Positions 226-64,000 of a stretch of DNA of 64,000 bases are shown here, one piece after another (the stretch's first letter is position 1; every line of letters begins with the position of its first letter). The position numbers and the translations under genes are program-made. A model generated the notes under the pieces. The model ran no database searches. It had not been told where the DNA came from and saw nothing but the letters and a program-made list of their open reading frames with translations. Location of the stretch: positions 1 to 64,000 of IMG/VR virus record IMGVR_UViG_3300045988_103907; one strand, 5' to 3'. This stretch comes from a virus.

Positions 226-1392
226 TTAGGAAACAATCCTATTAAACTGTTTGATTGCCTCTGCTTCGGTCTCTTCTTTTAAGATATGAGTATACACTTT
301 TAAGGTTATATCGGGCGACGAATGTCCCATGAGGTATTGAACCGATTTAACATCCATCTTGGCTTTGACAAGCCGTGTACAATATTCGTGGCGCATACTA
401 TGGGCAGTGACTTCAGGCAATGGTTCATCATGGCAACTATTATAGGCTTTGATTAGTCCTTCAAAAATTCTAACAAGGTTTTTATTCGTATAGGGCCTTC
501 CAGTTTTTGCTATAAACAAGAAGTCGGCTTGCCCATCTATTATTCTCTCTGCTTTTACAATCGGTCGTTGTTTTATCGCTTCTTCAAAAGCAATGATGGC
601 GTCTTTAGACAATGGGATAGTCCTTATCCCACTTTCTGTTTTTGTAGGTGCTAAATACAGCCCGCCGCTCTTTCCATCGTACACCATCTGATGAGATATA
701 GTAACAGTGTTGTTATCAAAATCAAATGACTTTTTTGTTAGCCCGCATAATTCTCCTGCTCGAAGTCCTGTCTCGTGCAAAAGCATCACCATGCCAACAT
801 GCCTTTTATATACTCGACTAGATTTCATGAACTTGATCAGATTTTGATACTGCTCTTCTGTTAATATTTCTTTTTCTTTTGAGTCACATTTGACAACTGT
901 ATTTAATTTAAAAACGAATGGATTTCTAGGAATTATATTCTCATCAAACATTTCTTGAAATGCCGGTCTAGCTAAAGACATGACATCTCTGATTGTTGTA
1001 TAACAATATCCTTCGTTATCCAATTCTCGTGCAAATTGTTTTACATCGCGCACTAAAATATCAGTTGCATTCATTTCCCCAATTAGGTGATTCTGAAAGA
1101 TTTTCAAATTCTGCGATTTTGTTTTATAGCTGCTTGGCCTAATAGTGAGTTTTGTTTCTTCGAGATGTCTTTTTGCTAATTGGTACACTGTGATTTTTGA
1201 AATAGACGTTACACCAAAATTAAGTTTTTCTTGGATTTCAGCTTCTTTTTCTCTCAATTCTTTAAGTGAAGTGGCGTATATTATTGAGCGTTTTCCAAGT
1301 TTGTTTGTCCATCTATATTGGTATCTCCCATCCTTTCTCTGGCTCTCGCCGTCTTTTAAAACTTTGCCATTATTATCTTTACGTCTTATCAT
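226..1392 (-). CDS. int: Tyrosine-type site-specific integrase
   Basis: C-terminal catalytic signature AHSMRHEY...LMGHSS...KVYTHI (R..HxxR..H..Y), N-terminal SAM-like domain, 388 aa. Confidence 0.85.
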   Translation of the reverse strand: MIRRKDNNGKVLKDGESQRKDGRYQYRWTNKLGKRSIIYATSLKELREKEAEIQEKLNFGVTSISKITVYQLAKRHLEETKLTIRPSSYKTKSQNLKIFQNHLIGEMNATDILVRDVKQFARELDNEGYCYTTIRDVMSLARPAFQEMFDENIIPRNPFVFKLNTVVKCDSKEKEILTEEQYQNLIKFMKSSRVYKRHVGMVMLLHETGLRAGELCGLTKKSFDFDNNTVTISHQMVYDGKSGGLYLAPTKTESGIRTIPLSKDAIIAFEEAIKQRPIVKAERIIDGQADFLFIAKTGRPYTNKNLVRIFEGLIKAYNSCHDEPLPEVTAHSMRHEYCTRLVKAKMDVKSVQYLMGHSSPDITLKVYTHILKEETEAEAIKQFNRIVS

Positions 1393-24144: not shown

Positions 24145-27100
24145 TTACGCTATCTCTCTATCATGCAGCCACTGCTTGTAAGGTTTGAAGTCGCTTGCAA
24201 TAACGTGCGATTCATCTTCCTTCTTTCCGAGCACAGCTACCTGACTTCCCTTTACAATCAAATCCTGATAATCTGACAAGACTCTCGGCCATACGGTCAG
24301 CTCAATGATACCATCGCCAGAATACAGATTTACAAATGCAAACTGCATACCAGTCTTTGTTTTCTTCTTTTGGATCTTTGCGATAATACCAACAAGCACA
24401 CAAGAATCACCTTCTTCAATTTCAGAAAAATCCTTAATGTAAGTAAATGCCTTCTCGAAAGGATTCGGGTCACTGATAAAGGTCTGCAAAGTCTGGAACT
24501 CCCAAAGTTCTTCATCTTGTAGATATTTCGTAGTCTGCTCGGCCATATATGCTTCTTTCTTTTTCAGCTTCTCAGTTTCATGTACGACACGACGCTTTTC
24601 ATTATAGATTCGTAGGACGGTTTCTTTATCAACCTTCTTACCAACCTTACAATGCTCCGTATCAATATCCCACTTACTCAGCAAAACTGCCTTGGTAGGA
24701 AGTGTACTGACTGGTTTAAATTCAGATTGTTCCAAACCGCTGGCAATATACTTTTCCAAAAATACTCGTTTGTTCTTTGTAGGAATCGCACCGGATTTGA
24801 CCAACGCAATGATCTGCGCTTTCGTTGCACGAACACGACTCGTAAAATCATCAAGTCCCTTAAATTTTCCATTTCTATCTCGTTCTGCAATGATAGTTTC
24901 AGCAAGTGTATTGCCAATACCACCGATAGCAGATAAGCCAAACAGAATTTTGCCATTTGACACAGTGAAATCCATACCGGAACGATTGATACTCGGCGGA
25001 AGAATCTGAATATCAAAGCTGCGTGCATCCACCATAATCTTGTTGACCTTGCCAACCTTTGCTTTATTTAGGTTCAACATAGCCTTAAAGAATGCAAGCG
25101 GATGGTGTGTTTTTAAGTATGCGGTTTGAAGGCAGATAACGGCATACGCCTGAGAATGGCTGGCGTTGAACCCATAGCCGCCCTTCGTTGACAACTCGTT
25201 GCAAATGTACTCGGCGGTCGCTTTATCGTATCCATTCGCAATAATCTCATCATGAAGAAGTTCGACTTCTTCCTTGACTTTCTCAGGTTTCTTCTTTGCC
25301 AAACACTTACGCATTCTATCAGCACCGGCATCGTTTCGACCGCCAAAGACCTTCGTGAGCTTCATGCTCTGTTCCTGATAGATGTTCACGCCATAGGTAC
25401 TGCGGAAAATTGGTTCCATATCAGGATGGAAGTAGTGAATATGTTCAGGATGATACTTGCAATCAACGTATGTAGGAATCGACGGCATTGCATCAGGACG
25501 ATAAAGAGCAATCAGAGCAGACAACTCTTCAATCGACCTAGGCTGAAGCTGCGCAACCAGATCTTTCATGCCAGACGATTCAATCTGGAATAGATTGTCT
25601 GTCTTACCGGAACAAATCAAATCGTAAGTTGCCTTGTCGTTCTCGAACTCTGGATTGTTGATATCAATTTCCCAGTCTGGAATATTATCCTCACGCTTCG
25701 CTTCATCAATAGCAACCAGCGACGCAACACCAAGAATATCAAACTTGACGAGTCCAATCTTCTCGTCCATCACTTTATCAACAGAAATAACGTGTTCTCC
25801 GTCAGTGCCGTGCCGAATGCCGATATACTCATAATAAGGATGTCGGCAGACAATAACACCGCCAGCATGAATACCATATCCTCGTGGGCGACCATTGATA
25901 TGACTTGCGATGTCAAGTAGTTCCTTATACTTCGGATTTTCAACCACTTCCGGGTTGGCTTCACGACAATCCTTCCATGTCTTTTGAACAAACTTCTCGC
26001 TGATTTTTCTTATTTCGGCATACGGAAAACCGAGAACTTTACCAACGTCCTGAATCGAAGTGACCGGAGTAGTGTACACGATGTTCATAACCTGAACTAC
26101 TCGATCTTCTCCATACTTCTGTGTCAGATACTCGACGACCTTGGCACGGTCACTGACATCAACATCAACGTCAGGAAGGTCTTTTCGCTCAATGGTAAGG
26201 AATCGTCCGAAGTCAAGTTCATACTTGATGGAATCAAGCTGCGTAATGCCAATCAGGTAACATACAAGTGAGCCAGCTGCAGAACCACGACCAGGGCCAA
26301 CAATGACATCATTTTTCTTACACCAGTTGATGTAATCAACCAGAATCAAAAAGTAATCACAGAAGTCTTTCTTCTCAATGACAAATAACTCGTCATCAAC
26401 ACGCTTACGATAGATTTTCTGTTTTTCTACATCAAACTTGTCAATACCGCGTTTCTTCCATCCCTCTTTTACAAGGTCTTTCAAGTAAGCTGCTGAGTTA
26501 GAATACTGTGGAGGAATCTCGATTTTAGGAAGTTCAGGTTCGTGCCAAGGCATATCCACATAGTCACATAAGTCAGCAACCTCATCAGTATTGTTGATAC
26601 ACCATTCTGCTGCATCATATCCAATCTGACTATCAAGGACCTCATGTTGCTCTTTACGAGACATAAAATAGCATCCCTCGTAGATTTCTGCGGCAGTTTC
26701 CGTATCATGTGCGATACGAAGGAAGTAATCTTGATAATAAAGATCCTCTTTGGTAGCAGCATGAACATCGTTTGTGACGACTACTTTTGTATGAGTATCG
26801 TTTGCCAACCGCATGATTTTCTGATTATATTTTGCTTGTTCACTGTTTGCGTGAGCCTGAACCTCAAGATAATAGTGAGGGAATAAGTTCTTATACTCTT
26901 GAACCAGCTTGACACAAGTGTCATAATCATCCGTTCTGGACAGCCTACTCGCCAAACAAGCAGACAGGATAATTAAATTATTCGTATCTTCCTTAGCGAT
27001 ATCCTCTTTTGTGATACGAGGACGGCTGTAAAAGCCATGAAGATGACCGAGTGTAGATAAGCGATTGACTGCCTGACGACCAGCTTCGTTTTTTGCGATG

Positions 27101-27360
27101 ATAATCAAGTGCCAGTATTTACTGTTCTTGTCCTTTACTTCCCTGTCCTCGCACTCGTATGCCTCAATACCATAAAGAAGTTTTACACTAGGATATTTGT
27201 CTTTTAGTTCTGAGTAGTACGGCCAGCTTGTTACCTCACCATGTTCCGTAATGGCAATGGCTTTTAAACCGAGTTCAGATGCTCTTTTTAGATTTTCTTC
27301 AGGAGAAGAGTACCCATCTAGCAGACTATAATTCGAGTGCGTGTGTAAACTACTTGACAT
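24145..27360 (-). CDS. dnaE: DNA polymerase III alpha subunit (DnaE-type, PHP domain)
   Basis: N-terminal PHP MSSSLHTHSNYSLLDG...ITEHG, 1071 aa, polymerase core and OB fold region. Confidence 0.9.
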   Translation of the reverse strand: MSSSLHTHSNYSLLDGYSSPEENLKRASELGLKAIAITEHGEVTSWPYYSELKDKYPSVKLLYGIEAYECEDREVKDKNSKYWHLIIIAKNEAGRQAVNRLSTLGHLHGFYSRPRITKEDIAKEDTNNLIILSACLASRLSRTDDYDTCVKLVQEYKNLFPHYYLEVQAHANSEQAKYNQKIMRLANDTHTKVVVTNDVHAATKEDLYYQDYFLRIAHDTETAAEIYEGCYFMSRKEQHEVLDSQIGYDAAEWCINNTDEVADLCDYVDMPWHEPELPKIEIPPQYSNSAAYLKDLVKEGWKKRGIDKFDVEKQKIYRKRVDDELFVIEKKDFCDYFLILVDYINWCKKNDVIVGPGRGSAAGSLVCYLIGITQLDSIKYELDFGRFLTIERKDLPDVDVDVSDRAKVVEYLTQKYGEDRVVQVMNIVYTTPVTSIQDVGKVLGFPYAEIRKISEKFVQKTWKDCREANPEVVENPKYKELLDIASHINGRPRGYGIHAGGVIVCRHPYYEYIGIRHGTDGEHVISVDKVMDEKIGLVKFDILGVASLVAIDEAKREDNIPDWEIDINNPEFENDKATYDLICSGKTDNLFQIESSGMKDLVAQLQPRSIEELSALIALYRPDAMPSIPTYVDCKYHPEHIHYFHPDMEPIFRSTYGVNIYQEQSMKLTKVFGGRNDAGADRMRKCLAKKKPEKVKEEVELLHDEIIANGYDKATAEYICNELSTKGGYGFNASHSQAYAVICLQTAYLKTHHPLAFFKAMLNLNKAKVGKVNKIMVDARSFDIQILPPSINRSGMDFTVSNGKILFGLSAIGGIGNTLAETIIAERDRNGKFKGLDDFTSRVRATKAQIIALVKSGAIPTKNKRVFLEKYIASGLEQSEFKPVSTLPTKAVLLSKWDIDTEHCKVGKKVDKETVLRIYNEKRRVVHETEKLKKKEAYMAEQTTKYLQDEELWEFQTLQTFISDPNPFEKAFTYIKDFSEIEEGDSCVLVGIIAKIQKKKTKTGMQFAFVNLYSGDGIIELTVWPRVLSDYQDLIVKGSQVAVLGKKEDESHVIASDFKPYKQWLHDREIA

Positions 27361-38487: not shown

Positions 38488-38579
38488 TGGTGGGACGTAA
38501 GGGACTCGAACCCCTGTGAGGTGTTATTCTCATCACCCGGTTATGAGCCAGGAGCTTTAACCAACTAAGCTAACGTCCC
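38488..38579 (-). tRNA. tRNA with CAU anticodon (Met/Ile2-type anticodon loop CUCAUAA) and an unusual ~20-nt variable arm; 92 nt with encoded CCA
   Basis: Hand-folded: acceptor GGGACGU/ACGUCCC, D arm GCUU/AAGC, anticodon stem CCUGG/CCGGG, T arm AGGGG-UUCGAGU-CCCUU. Confidence 0.5.
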
Positions 38580-38589
38580 ATGCAAACGC

Positions 38590-38680
38590 CGACTTTCATC
38601 GGCGCGATACCAGTGAAGGAATCGAACCTTATCTCTCGGTGTTTCCGAGCGCTTTTACCATTAAGCTATCCAGCCGTATA
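38590..38680 (-). ncRNA. tRNA-like element with canonical T arm (AAGG-UUCGAUU-CCUU) and D-arm-like segment but no foldable acceptor/anticodon stem; possible pseudo-tRNA
   Basis: Hand-folding fails (anticodon stem CUCGG/CCGAG encloses only 5 nt); followed by hairpin CGCCGA-UGAAAG-UCGGCG. Confidence 0.25.
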
Positions 38681-38806
38681 CCTCAGAATTTAATTCTCAC
38701 TATCCAAGCTACGTCGCGTTCCAATATGATCACTCTTGGCAACCATGTCGTAACATATAGGTTTCTTTCGGCTCTGAGTAACCGGTGCAGCGTAAGGGGC
38801 TGCGTG

Positions 38807-38882
38807 TGGAGCGACTGACGGGGTATGATCCCGCAACATTCAGATTGGAAATCTGACGCTCTGCCAATTGAACTACAGTCGC
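38807..38882 (-). tRNA. tRNA-Gly (UCC)
   Basis: Acceptor GCGACUG/CAGUCGC, anticodon loop UUUCCAA, 76 nt with CCA; atypical T loop AUCAUAC. Confidence 0.7.
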
Positions 38883-38988
38883 ATAATCACCCAGCTTGCA
38901 AAGCACTACTGCACCATCACTGGCGAGCTGGGAATAATAGTGGTAATCAAAGGAGATCAACAAACGGTACGCAACCATAAGTTGATAA

Positions 38989-39077
38989 TGGTGGACACGA
39001 CCCGATTTGAACGGGCACACCGCTGTTAACGGCAAAAGAGCCTAAATCTTTCATGTCTGCGATTCCATCACGTGTCC
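38989..39077 (-). tRNA. tRNA-Leu (UAG), class II
   Basis: Acceptor GGACACG/CGUGUCC, anticodon stem AAAGA/UCUUU loop UUUAGGC, variable arm CCG-UUAACAG-CGG, T arm GCCCG-UUCAAAU-CGGGU, CCA encoded. Confidence 0.65.
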
Positions 39078-39082
39078 ATAAA

Positions 39083-39172
39083 TTGAGGGTGTCGGGATCG
39101 AACCGACGATCGGCTATAAAGCACGCTGTCTGGGTCAAAGCCAGATGCCATTTACCACTTGGCGAACCCTCA
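39083..39172 (-). tRNA. tRNA with UUG anticodon (Gln-type loop CUUUGAC) and an unusual 21-nt variable arm; 90 nt, no encoded CCA
   Basis: Acceptor UGAGGGU/ACCCUCA, D arm GCCA/UGGC, anticodon stem UCUGG/CCAGA, T arm GUCGG-UUCGAUC-CCGAC. Confidence 0.5.
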
Positions 39173-39271
39173 TTATGTAACTTGGCTTGCTGCGTCCTAC
39201 TGCTCCGTTTTTTTGGAGAGCCAAGAATAATAGGAAGGTATTCATGAAAAGCAAGTGGAATACTCCACTGG

Positions 39272-39343
39272 TCCAAAATGTCGAATTCGAATCGCTCTTC
39301 TGCGTCCCAAACGCAGCGTGCTGCCATTACACTACATTCTGGA
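39272..39343 (-). ncRNA. Degenerate tRNA-like sequence (intact acceptor and UGG anticodon arm, defective D and T stems); possible pseudo-tRNA-Pro
   Basis: Acceptor UCCAGAA/UUUUGGA, anticodon stem CUGCG/CGCAG loop UUUGGGA; T stem pairs only 3 bp around UUCGAAU. Confidence 0.3.
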
Positions 39344-39345
39344 TA

Positions 39346-39433
39346 TGGTGCTACCGGAGGGGTATGATCCCTCAATTCCTCTCGGACGGTTGCTTTTAAG
39401 GCAACTGTGTCTCGCCAATTGCACCACGGTAGC
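39346..39433 (-). tRNA. tRNA-Leu (UAA), class II
   Basis: Acceptor GCUACCG/CGGUAGC, anticodon stem GUUGC/GCAAC loop CUUAAAA, variable arm UCC-GAGA-GGA, T arm GAGGG-AUCAUAC-CCCUC, CCA encoded. Confidence 0.7.
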
Positions 39434-39465
39434 ATATAATGTGGCGAGATAACTCGCCACATGTA

Positions 39466-40347
39466 TTATTTTCTTAATTCTTTCCTAGTTGCCGGGAGGC
39501 CATAATATCTACACCATTTTCTAACGGCATTATCAGTCACTCCATATTTTTCGCCAACCTTTAAGAAAGACATAGTTGTTATATCATTCAACAAAGTTTC
39601 TTTTGATGGCCATTCAACATTCCTTCTATCCGGCGAATGCCTATAGCATTCTTTACACAATGTTCCTTTCGTATTGTATTGTAAAGGTTTGCCACACACA
39701 GAGCATCGTCTGCATCTACATTCTCTTTTCTTAACAGGAACTGAAACTTCCTTTTTAGTAAATTCGATATTGTTTTCTTTAATCAATCTTTTAGCTTTGT
39801 CGTACCAACTCTTCGCGGAATAATTTATACCAATTTTAGAAAGTGCTTGTTTTATATTTGGTGATACTTTAAGTGCTTCTATCAACTTTTCTTCTGGAAC
39901 GGCCTCTTTGTATCTTATATTTTTCCCGCAGTAATTATCTGTTTGAGCATGACAATTTGGACATAAAAGTTGTAGATTGCTCAACTCATTGTTAAGCCTA
40001 TCTCCATCTACATGATGAACCTCCAATGGAATTTCATGTCCCAACTATTCTGTATTGCCACAACATTCACATTTATGAGGTCTTATGTAAAGCAAGGCTT
40101 TCCTTAACTGACTGCTAAAATATACTCCCTTTGTAAATTTTGACAAATCAAAGTTACCTTTGTTCTAGCCTTGTCCAGTAAAATGGGATATGTCTATATT
40201 ATTCTCTTCAACATATTTCTTTAAAGCCGAGTGAGTTCCACCGCTGTTGTCTTTATATCCAAGTTTTCTTGCAACAGCATCTAAGCTTTTACTCTCTCTA
40301 AAAGCTTGCTCAATTTCTTTTTTTGTAAATTTGTCGATTCTTTTCAT
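39466..40347 (-). CDS. HNH homing-endonuclease-like gene whose single reading frame is interrupted by two in-frame TAG codons (40165-40167 and 40045-40047): pseudogene or amber-recoded/suppressed gene
   Basis: Joined frame: N-terminal HTH-like 60 aa, TAG, ...IRPHKCECCGNTE, TAG, LGHEIPLEVHHVDGDRLNNELSNLQLLCPNCH (classic HNH), Zn-finger region, C-terminal KYGVTDNAVRKW HTH. Confidence 0.6.
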
Positions 40348-40538
40348 GAATTTGCCTCCAATATCTAATATGTGGACGTTCGGACTCTGGTGCCAAGGAC
40401 GGTATTCGAAACCGCATGTGTTTCCACAGCGAGGTTTGGGCTCGCCCTGTCTCCCATTTGCAGCACCTTGGCATATTGCCGGTCTTTCCCGGCTGTCAGC
40501 CCCGCGCAGGGCATTTTCGGAGGAAGAAAATATCTTAG

Positions 40539-42749
40539 TTATTCGTGCCGATTCTCATAGAATTCATTCCGTAACTGAATAATACCCTTCTTGCAAAAAG
40601 ATTCCTGGTCTTTCTCTCGTTGCTCACGCATCCAACCATAGAACAGGTTATCCTCAGCAGTAAACAACTTTGCGGTATTTTCATAATAGCCACGCTTCTG
40701 AACGCTCTGCATAACACCACGCAAGAACTTCCAGTGCTTATAATAAGGAAGCTTCAGCTTAAACATAAAATTGTTGTTATCTCTCAAAACAAAGCCTTCA
40801 ATATGCTCGATGCCATGGTACAGATAATTCTCATTCATGACCTCTTCATACCAAGGATAGAATTCACTCCAGCTCTCAAAGATCTTAACCTTCTCCTTAA
40901 TCTGCAAATGACACTTTTCAGCAACACGCTTCAGATCATCGTAATCCATCACACTGAAGTTCATATCATTCGCAACAATATCCAGCAAAACAATGTGCGG
41001 TTTCTTGTATTCGATGATATGAGCATCATTCACAGGATCAATCACTTCAAAAATGATGGAACCATTCTCTTTTGCAACCTCCTTCAAATTCTTACGGTCT
41101 TCATCAGAGGTCGTATCCATGAGAATCTTTCGGAACATATCTGCAAAAGGCCCTTCAGGAGTGGATTTACTTGCAATGAACATACCATCCTGTTCTGCAT
41201 CATACGAGACAATGCCAAGAAATCCGTTTTCCTTCAGATATGCAGTCACCGGGAACTTCAAAGTGTTCTGTAGGTTTCCAATTCTCGTTTCATTCCGCTC
41301 ATCGACCGCAAAGGACTTATCATAGCTTCGAGCTACAATCTTATTCGTCTTTGTGTTAATGAACAATCCCCTTGCTTTGGTAGAAACCTCATCCCAGTGC
41401 TTCTTATAAAATGCTTCACGAGAGAAGTTGAAGGAAGAAATATCTCCGAATCGCTTCTCAAACACATATTTGCTTTGACGCATCTTACTGACAAGTTCTG
41501 CGTTATCGAACTCAGTTTTCATTTCAACGGCAGTTTCAGTCTTTGGCTCCTCTTTTCGGAATACATCGTTCTTTGTTTCTACACATTTGATTGACTGACC
41601 GTGTTCAAGTTCCACGCAACGGAGATATCCACCAAACTCAATTTTTCCTTCGAGGTTGTAGCACCGATGCCCCATATCAATAGGAACATCCTGCACATTT
41701 CGATGACCGAATATCTGAATGTAGCTATCCGGCATCGATTTTTCCCAAGACTCAGCCACGGTTAGCATATCAGGATAGCGACCAACACCCTTTACCATCT
41801 GGTCAGTAGACACGAATGGTAGAAATTCAGGCAAATAACTCAAACCACCATGGCTAACGAAGTATCTTTTCTCGTCGTAATCAAAATAGGAGCACTGTCC
41901 TACTCTCGAATAAACCTTACGAGCCGTATTATGGTCAATCCCTGCTTTGAAAAGCTGCGGACGAGTGTAGTTTGCGAACTCCTCGCTCTGAACCGGTTCA
42001 TCATGGCCCCACTTGTTCAGCCACCGTTCGTGATTTCCTTCAAGGAGAATTACATTCTTCCGATTATTGTCTACAACATCACAAAGGAACTTGAACATCT
42101 CTACATTCTCAATACCGCGATCCAGATAATCACCAACAAAAATGTACAGTTCATCATCCTTCAGGTCACCAAGGTACTCTTTCAAGCAACTGTAACATCC
42201 ATGTACATCACCGATGATATGAATTTTGTTCCAGTTGTTAAAGTCCTGCGGAACATAGTTCAATTTCTCAAGGACATTTACATCTGACGAAAGTACAGTC
42301 ACACCAGACGGAATCTTCTGTGTAGCAAATCGCGCATACATCTTATCAATAGCAGCATCTGGAACTCGCTTCAGAGGAGCACGAAGCGCATTACGCCGTT
42401 TACACTCATCAATCGGCAAATCAGTCATGTCGATGATGTACATTCTGTATCTGTACTGCTTTGCAAGATTCTTATAGCGATTGATTTCAACAGTTTTAGA
42501 GTTCGTTGCATCAATCACGGTAAATTCACCGTGAGACATCCGAACCTCCAACAGTTTAAAGAGCATATCCCAGACAACATCATCGTTCTGAGGAGAGATT
42601 TCCATTGTGCCAGCCGGGGTTTCCTGACCACCCTGACACATAAGGCGAATCGTATCGGCACTAAGCGTATACTTTTCCAGATCATGCTCTTTAATATAGG
42701 TGGATTTCCCGCATCCGGGTGCTCCACGGAAAAGAAGCAAAGTTCTCAT
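40539..42749 (-). CDS. Pnkp-like polynucleotide kinase / metallophosphatase / ligase-like adenylyltransferase (end-healing and sealing RNA-repair enzyme)
   Basis: N-terminal P-loop GAPGCGKST, central calcineurin-like IHIIGDVHGCYSCL...GDYLDRG...GNHE, C-terminal ligase motif I-like LKENGFLG; 736 aa. Confidence 0.65.
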   Translation of the reverse strand: MRTLLLFRGAPGCGKSTYIKEHDLEKYTLSADTIRLMCQGGQETPAGTMEISPQNDDVVWDMLFKLLEVRMSHGEFTVIDATNSKTVEINRYKNLAKQYRYRMYIIDMTDLPIDECKRRNALRAPLKRVPDAAIDKMYARFATQKIPSGVTVLSSDVNVLEKLNYVPQDFNNWNKIHIIGDVHGCYSCLKEYLGDLKDDELYIFVGDYLDRGIENVEMFKFLCDVVDNNRKNVILLEGNHERWLNKWGHDEPVQSEEFANYTRPQLFKAGIDHNTARKVYSRVGQCSYFDYDEKRYFVSHGGLSYLPEFLPFVSTDQMVKGVGRYPDMLTVAESWEKSMPDSYIQIFGHRNVQDVPIDMGHRCYNLEGKIEFGGYLRCVELEHGQSIKCVETKNDVFRKEEPKTETAVEMKTEFDNAELVSKMRQSKYVFEKRFGDISSFNFSREAFYKKHWDEVSTKARGLFINTKTNKIVARSYDKSFAVDERNETRIGNLQNTLKFPVTAYLKENGFLGIVSYDAEQDGMFIASKSTPEGPFADMFRKILMDTTSDEDRKNLKEVAKENGSIIFEVIDPVNDAHIIEYKKPHIVLLDIVANDMNFSVMDYDDLKRVAEKCHLQIKEKVKIFESWSEFYPWYEEVMNENYLYHGIEHIEGFVLRDNNNFMFKLKLPYYKHWKFLRGVMQSVQKRGYYENTAKLFTAEDNLFYGWMREQREKDQESFCKKGIIQLRNEFYENRHE

Positions 42750-56690: not shown

Positions 56691-57209
56691 TTACACCTCA
56701 CTAAAATCAACATTAGCTAATACTTCATTACCATATTCAACAAGCGCATTCCTAAACCAGTTTTCATTCTTTTTCCACCACTGCTCTGCTTGCTGCGGAG
56801 TCATTTCAATTCCATTGTCTTTTGCAATACCAATAATATCATCGGTACACCAACGTGTTTCTGCAAACCAATACTGATTTACGTCATTATCCTTTTCCTG
56901 TTCGTCTTCAATATAGTTAGGGCAATAGTTGGTGTAGAAATCCACATCAAAAAGTGTGATAGTCATATCATTTCCGCTTAATTCACGTTCAACGTCAGCT
57001 ACTTCTTCTCTGAGATACAGCTCAGACATAATACCGTCTTCATGTTCCTGAATCCATTTCTCTGTAATATTGAACTTTTTCGCCAGTTCATCAACCTCAA
57101 ACACCCATGTGCCATAATTTGTATTCTTAGTGCCATACTCTACCATATAATCAGCAATCTGACGTTCCATCATGTTGTCATCCATCTTTATTTTCCTCCT
57201 AAAATTCAA
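56691..57209 (-). CDS. Acidic hypothetical protein
   Basis: 172 aa. Confidence 0.35.
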   Translation of the reverse strand: MNFRRKIKMDDNMMERQIADYMVEYGTKNTNYGTWVFEVDELAKKFNITEKWIQEHEDGIMSELYLREEVADVERELSGNDMTITLFDVDFYTNYCPNYIEDEQEKDNDVNQYWFAETRWCTDDIIGIAKDNGIEMTPQQAEQWWKKNENWFRNALVEYGNEVLANVDFSEV

Positions 57210-63977: not shown

Positions 63978-64000
63978 AGGAAAGAAGTCGTCACGCTCGA

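Follow-up and report, generated by a model that had tools for sequence, protein, structure and literature searches.

The analysed stretch of DNA, 64,000 nucleotides (nt) of a viral record (IMG/VR record IMGVR_UViG_3300045988_103907, positions 1 to 64,000, called the window throughout the text), carries on its minus strand a free-standing gene for an HNH homing endonuclease, located between two tRNA genes (Table 1). Its frame, 40347..39466, comprises 293 sense positions plus a terminal TAA and contains exactly two in-frame stop codons, both TAG and 39 codons apart (codons 61 and 101). An earlier note on this DNA, made from the letters alone, had described one continuous frame of about 293 codons broken only by TAGs at 40165-40167 and 40045-40047, the second of which splits an HNH motif, in a gene set of about 95 minus-strand genes stopping at TAA or TGA and never at TAG. 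Our translation, domain search and stop-codon count agreed with this observation in every detail.

The joined translation matched Pfam HNH (PF01844) with 25.0 bits (cut-off 21.4) and HNH_3 (PF13392) with 24.8 bits (cut-off 24.8). Codon 101 is found after the CxxC pair (CECCGNTE) and before the HH...N...CPNCH part of the motif. The residues of the metal finger (C93-x2-C96, H111-H112, N119/N120/N124, C129-P-N-C132-H133) were invariant or nearly so in the homologue alignment, and with this beta-beta-alpha metal finger of His-His...Asn...His and two Cys pairs the protein belongs to the HNH superfamily. A total of 763 HNH homologues, many of them full length (about 300 amino acids, aa), were identified in protein collections. 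The peptide contexts spanning a TAG in the phage family (X for TAG) were CYNCK-X-LVTEIEPNDEIFLR, ITYSPL-X-K and HFTGQG-X-NK.

Using a greedy map of the minus-strand open reading frames (ORFs) of at least 50 aa, about 98 ORFs were found in the window, 58 ending in TAA and 40 in TGA; the sole TAG-ended ORF of this map was the N-terminal fragment of the HNH gene. The 55 most reliable ORFs (at least 100 aa) gave 37 TAA, 18 TGA and no TAG; at a TAG share of about 15% of stops, such a count would be expected with a probability of about 1e-4. All other minus-strand TAGs of the window with an open frame on both sides belonged to alternative frames of real genes or were located upstream of start codons, and the HNH gene was the only TAG-containing gene in the window. 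Two apparent TAG genes (L142:13143-13622 and window 18687) were ruled out as spurious frames. More than 100 IMG/VR contigs of 110-140 kb share a DNA polymerase and an RNA ligase 90-100% identical to those of the window, and 80 relatives were fetched with the RNA ligase fusion gene next to the HNH gene as anchor (90-100% identical). In the closest relative, contig 101066, the sole reliable TAG-ended ORF (L142 9052-9501, minus strand, corresponding to L217 18804-19253) is directly followed by two more stop codons, and in a second relative (L265, 17999-18412) further stops follow such an ORF six codons downstream. Backup stops of this kind are expected where TAG is leaky. TAG as an ordinary stop was not found elsewhere in the stop-codon tabulation; it is not used as a terminator in this phage family, and the reliable ORFs end in TAA or TGA.

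A decayed pseudogene with two chance amber mutations, kept as the alternative in the earlier note, had to be considered: TGG becomes TAG by one transition, decay is frequent among homing endonucleases, and in one relative (L069) a deletion remnant of the gene was found. However, all full-length copies of the family keep the open frame, with TAG as the only in-frame stop, and no in-frame TAA, TGA or frameshift was found in any of them; L069 was the only fragmented relative. The TAGs occupy positions 61 and 100/101 in nearly all copies and 22, 126, 139 or 181 in some. At the conserved tryptophan (Trp, W) positions W61 and W101, TAG was present in 17/17 and 16/17 HNH copies of the phage family, respectively, and the copies of the Logan contigs L001-L003 share 58-66% protein identity with that of the window. 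The genomes with these HNH copies also contain a matching suppressor tRNA as well as TAGs in conserved late-region genes, putative packaging genes among them (both described below). Since the frame and its TAGs were retained through about 50% protein divergence, we exclude decay as a highly improbable explanation, and the alignments indicate that the HNH gene is not a pseudogene. The earlier proposal of TAG as a sense or suppressed codon is supported by the same diverged orthologues, by the lack of TAG terminators, by a tRNA with CUA anticodon (tRNA(CUA)) outside the window and by in-frame TAGs in other genes of close relatives. Taken together, the HNH gene is very probably intact, and its two TAGs are sense codons, most likely for Trp, read by a phage-encoded tRNA(CUA) derived from tRNA-Trp.

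Codon columns at the TAG positions

Codon columns were compiled from 82 HNH loci with available DNA. Column 61 contained 52 TGG and 17 TAG, and column 101 contained 64 TGG, 16 TAG and one TGA, the latter in a TGA-recoded phage; the count for CAA/CAG was 0 in both. The conserved glutamine (Gln) column 126 contained 57 CAA, 16 CAG and one TAG. Homologues with known types of recoding pattern served as controls. Three of them from other large phages (L404, L406, L407) carried nine TAGs at E, R, N, Q, K and H columns and kept TGG at the Trp columns, a pattern like that of code 15 (TAG read as Gln), and one (L438) carried TGA at Trp columns, a pattern like that of code 4 (TGA read as Trp). Therefore, the column approach separates the three recodings.

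Naive ORF maps with TAG as a sense codon were discarded, as they produced many artefacts (antisense ORFs, N-terminal extensions through upstream TAGs). The tally reported here was obtained by tblastn of 181 reference ORFs against 373 loci, which come from related contigs and are phylogenetically non-independent; reference ORFs with recurrent TAA or TGA in relatives were removed as spurious. In this filtered tally, every TAG present in at least four loci was located in a TGG column, in putative packaging genes and unannotated late-region genes. The TAG/TGG counts were 54/85 for W63 and 6/133 for W56 of the TerL-like protein, 31/44 for W89 and 15/60 for W69 of a 341-aa protein, 9/62 for W69 of a 248-aa protein, 9/62 for W48 of the TerS-like protein (other codons Phe or Tyr), 4/67 for W85 of a 160-aa protein, and 7/24 for W114 of the orthologues of the window ORF 56691-57209. 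Altogether 13 recurrent TAG sites in at least 8 genes were found, all at Trp or aromatic columns, and among the approximately 1000 codon observations at these 13 columns there was no CAA or CAG. The scan of other genes for in-frame TAG, which the earlier note had advised, was thus positive for the putative packaging and late-region genes of the family. In contig 101066, the one closest to the window, three packaging/late-region genes contained one TAG each, and the orthologues of contig 107720 carried Trp at exactly these three positions. We are aware of the fact that the names of the late-region genes are tentative: Pfam and PHROGs searches with these genes yielded almost nothing, and the tentative label “TerL-like” is based on Walker A and B motifs and a weak match to T4 gp17 (E = 0.54).

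By this comparison, TAG behaves as a rare synonym of TGG in a family which has removed it as a terminator. It aligns with conserved Trp residues and alternates with TGG, and its predicted decoder, described in the following, is of the Trp type.

The tRNA(CUA) and its CCA allele

As had been noted before, none of the 7-8 tRNAs of the window has a CUA anticodon (ARAGORN, Rfam). The search beyond the window, carried out in the relatives, located tRNA(CUA) about 16 kb past window position 64000, in a second tRNA cluster which adjoins the putative packaging genes. ARAGORN identified it there in 40 of the 80 relatives and missed a degenerate variant, which was recovered with a regular expression and the Rfam tRNA model (45.3 bits). 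The closest contigs to the window and the contigs with the same HNH gene contain this variant. Altogether, 113 locus copies of the family contain tRNA(CUA), and the pattern scan identified it in at least 117 IMG/VR contigs; among the carriers are contigs which have the same HNH gene (107720, 097151) or flanking genes identical to those of the window (101066, 113318, 114994). Its sequence is GCGCCTATAATTCAAAGGTAGAAGTCAGGTCTCTAAAACCTGTATGTGCTGTCTCGAAAGCAGCTGGGCGTGCCA; further forms are types A and B. No HDV-like ribozyme was detected beside tRNA(CUA).

A candidate for an ochre suppressor, located next to the tRNA(CUA) of the closest contigs (L300 7441-7512, loop AUUUAAU), was rejected: this is a tRNA-Lys(UUU) which has lost 2 nt of its anticodon loop and thereby resembles an ochre suppressor, and it is probably defective.

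In a few relatives the same slot between tRNA-Met and tRNA-Ser is occupied, at the same coordinates, by a tRNA-Trp(CCA). The acceptor stem (G1-U72) is invariant between the two alleles, which also have discriminator G73 and the CU-NNN-AA loop in common; 13 of the 21 stem pairs differ between them with compensatory changes. Both are predicted to be functional tRNAs with a conserved synthetase-facing surface, and tRNA(CUA), by its position an allele of the phage tRNA-Trp(CCA), appears to be derived from it. TAG at Trp sites was observed in 77/112 loci with the CUA allele, in 0/7 loci with the CCA allele and in 4/33 loci with neither, two of these four being truncated loci. TAG sense codons co-occur with the CUA allele.

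From the alignments and the tRNA homology we infer that Trp is inserted at TAG, with the tRNA(CUA) being charged by the tryptophanyl-tRNA synthetase (TrpRS) of the host. The HNH gene is part of an early/middle tRNA operon, whereas the suppressor is located beside the packaging/late-region genes on the opposite strand, downstream of a gene for a YonO-like RNA polymerase. Therefore, the mRNA of the nuclease would be untranslatable until the suppressor accumulates. The TAGs may keep the nuclease untranslated up to this point and thereby limit its toxicity early in infection or in lysogens, where it could stay silent because the phage has integrases. TAG is fixed in the HNH gene (17/17 and 16/17 copies) and polymorphic with TGG in the late-region genes, which fits a selection for gating of the nuclease. 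We therefore suggest, from the gene order and the codon distribution, that the TAGs gate nuclease expression. At the level of the whole family, a widespread group of human-gut phages with genomes of about 135 kb, we consider it likely that a natural TAG-to-Trp variant of the genetic code is present in an early, still polymorphic stage. The tRNA-Trp slot of these phages would exist as a CCA or CUA allele, TAG terminators would have been purged, TGG would have changed to TAG only in genomes with the CUA allele, and in the homing endonucleases of the family TAG would have become fixed at core Trp residues, where it would serve as a gate of translation.

A number of observations weigh against the decoding of TAG as Trp by a phage-encoded suppressor. 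Seven TAGs were located at CAG columns, all of them single-contig events, and the TAG at codon 126 in L001/L002 falls into the conserved Gln column. The generic Pfam HNH profile was uninformative at codon 101 (25.3 bits with Q versus 23.8 bits with W). In the contigs L302 and L304, the 341-aa late-region gene has a Trp site with TAG, and the cluster lacks a CUA tRNA. The suppressor of this phage itself is deduced from near-identical relatives, the sequence analysed ending at 64 kb. Furthermore, the search for release-factor or aminoacyl-tRNA-synthetase cargo, proposed along with the initial observation, detected neither a phage TrpRS nor a release factor in the about 100 of 130 kb examined. 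Finally, the E. coli amber suppressor su7 (supU), a laboratory mutant, arose from tRNA-Trp by a change from CCA to CUA and inserts mainly Gln. Because su7 is charged largely with Gln, a Trp-like tRNA body is not proof of Trp insertion.

Some of these points would fit a decoding of TAG as Gln by a suppressor tRNA, as in the crAss-like, Lak and phAss-1 phages with code 15, the kind of recoding that the earlier note had in mind. In-frame TAG, the lack of TAG terminators and a phage tRNA(CUA) are found here as in code 15, su7 provides an example of a tRNA-Trp with CUA anticodon inserting Gln, and gene callers already translate two homologues (P0001, P0003) with Q. Moreover, amber reassignments other than TAG-to-Gln have not been reported for phages (Borges et al.; Babkin et al.). 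However, TAG as Gln predicts TAG mainly in Gln columns and CAA/CAG in the TAG columns. Neither was seen, and code 15 is therefore unsupported. CAA/CAG are absent from all 13 recurrent sites, although TAG-to-CAG is a single transition, and there is no alternation of TAG with these codons. In the HNH homologues with a true code-15 pattern, TAG is found at polar columns, and the Trp columns contain TGG. The TAG-at-CAG events were confined to single contigs, with a frequency near that of background TAA/TGA nonsense variants. With TAGs in Trp columns, alternating with TGG, and a suppressor that is an allele of tRNA-Trp, the suggestion of amber-to-Gln recoding could not be upheld, and we regard it as very unlikely. 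The alignment of the joined protein to PF01844 and to the orthologues, proposed in the same context, gave a match to the profile (25.0 bits), and the orthologues carried TGG and not a Gln codon at the TAG positions.

Ambiguous decoding, with a Trp-derived CUA tRNA charged with both Trp and Gln and only the Trp fraction of the protein fully active, would accommodate the dominant TAGs in Trp columns together with the occasional ones in Gln columns, with su7 as the precedent. On the other hand, the fixed TAGs are essentially confined to Trp columns, and relatives of the phage are found in metagenome-assembled genomes (MAGs) of Clostridia, while many Firmicutes lack a glutaminyl-tRNA synthetase. 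We consider this alternative unlikely as well, and decoding of TAG as Trp remains our preferred interpretation.

Insertion site, tRNA cluster and genome context

The features of the HNH locus are summarized in Table 1. The hairpin downstream of the gene marks the 3' edge of the HNH cassette.

Table 1. Features at the HNH locus of the window
Feature	Coordinates	Strand	Description and basis
Free-standing HNH homing-endonuclease gene	39466..40347	minus	ATG at 40345-40347; 293 codons + TAA; translation, Pfam, homologues
In-frame TAG, codon 61	40165..40167	minus	FTGQG-TAG-NKG; probably Trp, from homologue column
In-frame TAG, codon 101	40045..40047	minus	CCGNTE-TAG-LGHEIPLEVHH, inside HNH zinc/metal finger; probably Trp
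Shine-Dalgarno sequence GGAGG	40355..40359	minus	7 nt 5' of ATG; read from sequence
Hairpin	39439..39462	minus	10-bp stem ATGTGGCGAG / CTCGCCACAT, 4-nt loop, no U-tract; directly 3' of TAA; read from sequence
tRNA-Leu(CAA)	40388..40472	minus	Upstream flank of cassette; anticodon loop CCCAAAC with C33; ARAGORN
tRNA-Leu(UAA)	39346..39433	minus	Downstream flank of cassette; ARAGORN
Rest of tRNA cluster	38488..39342	minus	Pro-UGG, 90-nt Gln-UUG, Leu-UAG, Gly-UCC, tRNA remnant, 92-nt Met-CAU; ARAGORN, Rfam
Polynucleotide kinase/phosphatase/RNA ligase fusion (tRNA-repair type)	40539..42749	minus	Upstream neighbour; PHROG 8238 RNA ligase, E = 1e-222

Among the 80 relatives, the insertion site contained the same gene in two (97.5% nucleotide identity, same two TAGs), variants in five (L064/L071, L083/L099, L096; 52-58% protein identity to the window copy), a deletion remnant in one (L069) and only a 200-nt spacer in about 70, in which the Leu(CAA) and Leu(UAA) tRNAs are only about 200 nt apart. 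A full-length HNH gene at one site in 7-8 of the 80 relatives represents the sporadic presence typical of a free-standing homing endonuclease. About 1.5 kb around the HNH gene, including five tRNA genes, are divergent in HNH-less relatives which are 99% identical outside. This is compatible with co-conversion, though the whole tRNA cassette is a mosaic anyway. Of the genomes compared, the four with the HNH gene (window, L123, L064, L083) all had the C33 allele of tRNA-Leu(CAA), and the HNH-less L058 has a canonical loop. The canonical tRNA-Leu(CAA) allele may hold the target of the nuclease.

Several side observations were made for the tRNA cluster. Each slot (window 38488-40472; about 12300-14300 in L058, L064, L083 and L123) exists in several very divergent alleles, in genomes which are 97-100% identical in the flanking genes. 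This diversity beside a tRNA-repair gene points to an arms race against tRNA nucleases of the host or to co-conversion caused by the HNH nuclease. Unexpectedly long extra arms were found in the 90-nt tRNA with UUG anticodon (Gln; 39083-39172) and the 92-nt tRNA with CAU anticodon (38488-38579), both on the minus strand of the window; L058 and similar relatives carry a normal 71-nt tRNA-Gln in the slot of the former. At window 38616-38668, positions 8-63 of the Rfam tRNA model were matched with 29.1 bits; this partial match probably represents a tRNA remnant.

The window further encodes a DNA polymerase III alpha-type enzyme, a helicase, RecJ, NrdD, a DNA ligase and an integrase in addition to the kinase/phosphatase/RNA-ligase fusion, and is the replication and nucleotide-metabolism half of the phage genome. 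The coordinates indicate that it approximately corresponds to the first 64 kb of a genome type of 110-140 kb. By megablast, no match of the locus was found among 50,697 phage genomes, and none of the annotated phages is a close relative. Because TerL-like relatives with 62-76% identity were mostly found in Clostridia MAGs, the host is probably a Clostridium-class Firmicute.

Two tyrosine-recombinase (integrase) genes were observed, one at the left end of the window (226-1392) and one among the tail genes of a relative (L490 12259-13248), where it adjoins a Holliday-junction resolvase. The YonO-like single-subunit RNA polymerase mentioned above was seen at L217 7892-10375 (minus strand) as an 827-aa protein with a DFDGD motif and a match to Pfam RdRP (PF05183), upstream of the suppressor tRNA cluster and the packaging genes. 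The match of the DNA polymerase gene (window 24145-27360) is about 800 or about 230 nt longer in some relatives (loci L034, L039, L044, L056, L057 and L036-L038, L040, L048, L053, L054), which suggests intron or intein insertions. At L300 9557-9946 the TerL-like gene of the relatives is split by a group-I-intron-like RNA without endonuclease ORF (Rfam Intron_gpI, 31.8 bits with a cut-off of 50, E = 1.7e-5).

Comparison with known systems

Free-standing homing endonucleases are known from phage tRNA clusters, with SegB of T4, a GIY-YIG enzyme, and the HNH enzymes of the T5 tRNA region as examples. As in these systems, the nuclease gene described here is located between tRNA genes and is sporadic among close relatives, and the flanking tRNA alleles differ with and without the gene. 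To our knowledge, no tRNA-region endonuclease of the SegB or T5 type is gated by stop-codon suppression. The route from tRNA-Trp to an amber suppressor by a single-base change of the anticodon is that of E. coli su7. Unlike this laboratory mutant, the phage alleles occur naturally and have diverged, with compensatory changes in the stems, and it is Trp to which the codon columns point.

The assignment of TAG to Trp is the same as in NCBI table 32 of the Balanophoraceae plastid, the only established TAG-to-Trp code known to us. The Balanophoraceae plastid, however, has an extreme AT bias, its lineage is unrelated, and the mechanism is probably unrelated, too. For phages, 19.4% of 180 tRNA-Sup(CUA) were assigned to the Trp isotype by tRNAscan-SE, with reference to a “rarely reported code 32” (PMC10879173). 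These suppressors from the theta-ribozyme study are a hint of the same phenomenon, in the form of an isotype prediction only, without codon-level evidence, gene links or allele comparison. Full-text literature searches yielded no codon-level report of TAG-to-Trp in a phage.

With the code-15 phages (crAss-like, Lak, phAss-1) the family shares in-frame TAGs in conserved genes, the absence of TAG as terminator, a phage tRNA(CUA) and the human gut as habitat, and with phAss-1 also a similar genome size (136 kb versus about 135 kb). Unlike in these phages, TAG aligns with Trp here, and the suppressor is tRNA-Trp-like; phAss-1 and the crAss-like phages were assigned TAG-to-Gln (PMC9523058, PMC10607447). 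PhAss-1 and its relatives are not close to the window: there was no megablast match, and the best DNA polymerase match in the phage collection was 35% identical. The difference in assignment affects annotation. Database proteins with an apparent Gln at the TAG positions (P0001, P0003, P0005, P0008, P0009, P0011, P0023) have TAG in their DNA, and others are C-terminal fragments starting just after codon 101 (P0002, P0014, P0041, P0044). Virus gene callers which assume code 15 or code 11 would thus produce annotation errors, either Gln at a conserved Trp or fragments.

Stop-codon recoding in phages has been described as TAG-to-Gln and TGA-to-Trp only (Borges et al., 10.1101/2021.08.26.457843). 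If true, the system reported here would be a third kind and would widen the range of reassignments which phages can impose on a standard-code host. The tRNA(CUA) may be a natural Trp-type amber suppressor useful for genetic-code engineering. With alleles with and without suppressor function coexisting in one family, the order of the steps of a code change could be followed, from the loss of TAG stops over the anticodon switch of the resident tRNA-Trp to drift or selection from TGG to TAG. A parallel in kind is provided by TGA-to-Trp (code 4) gut phages such as Agate and Jade, in which a stop codon likewise replaces TGG at Trp positions and is read by a phage suppressor tRNA in a standard-code host. 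For Agate, a group I intron of the early region was described to encode a homing endonuclease in which the recoded stop is used in preference to TGG, and a delayed production of the enzyme was proposed as the consequence (10.1101/2021.08.26.457843). The HNH nuclease of the window would fit and extend this idea of toxic or late functions gated by suppression. Unlike in Agate and Jade, the codon concerned is TAG, TGA is a normal terminator (40 of 98 window ORFs), and the recoding is sparse, with few codons per genome, and polymorphic within the family.

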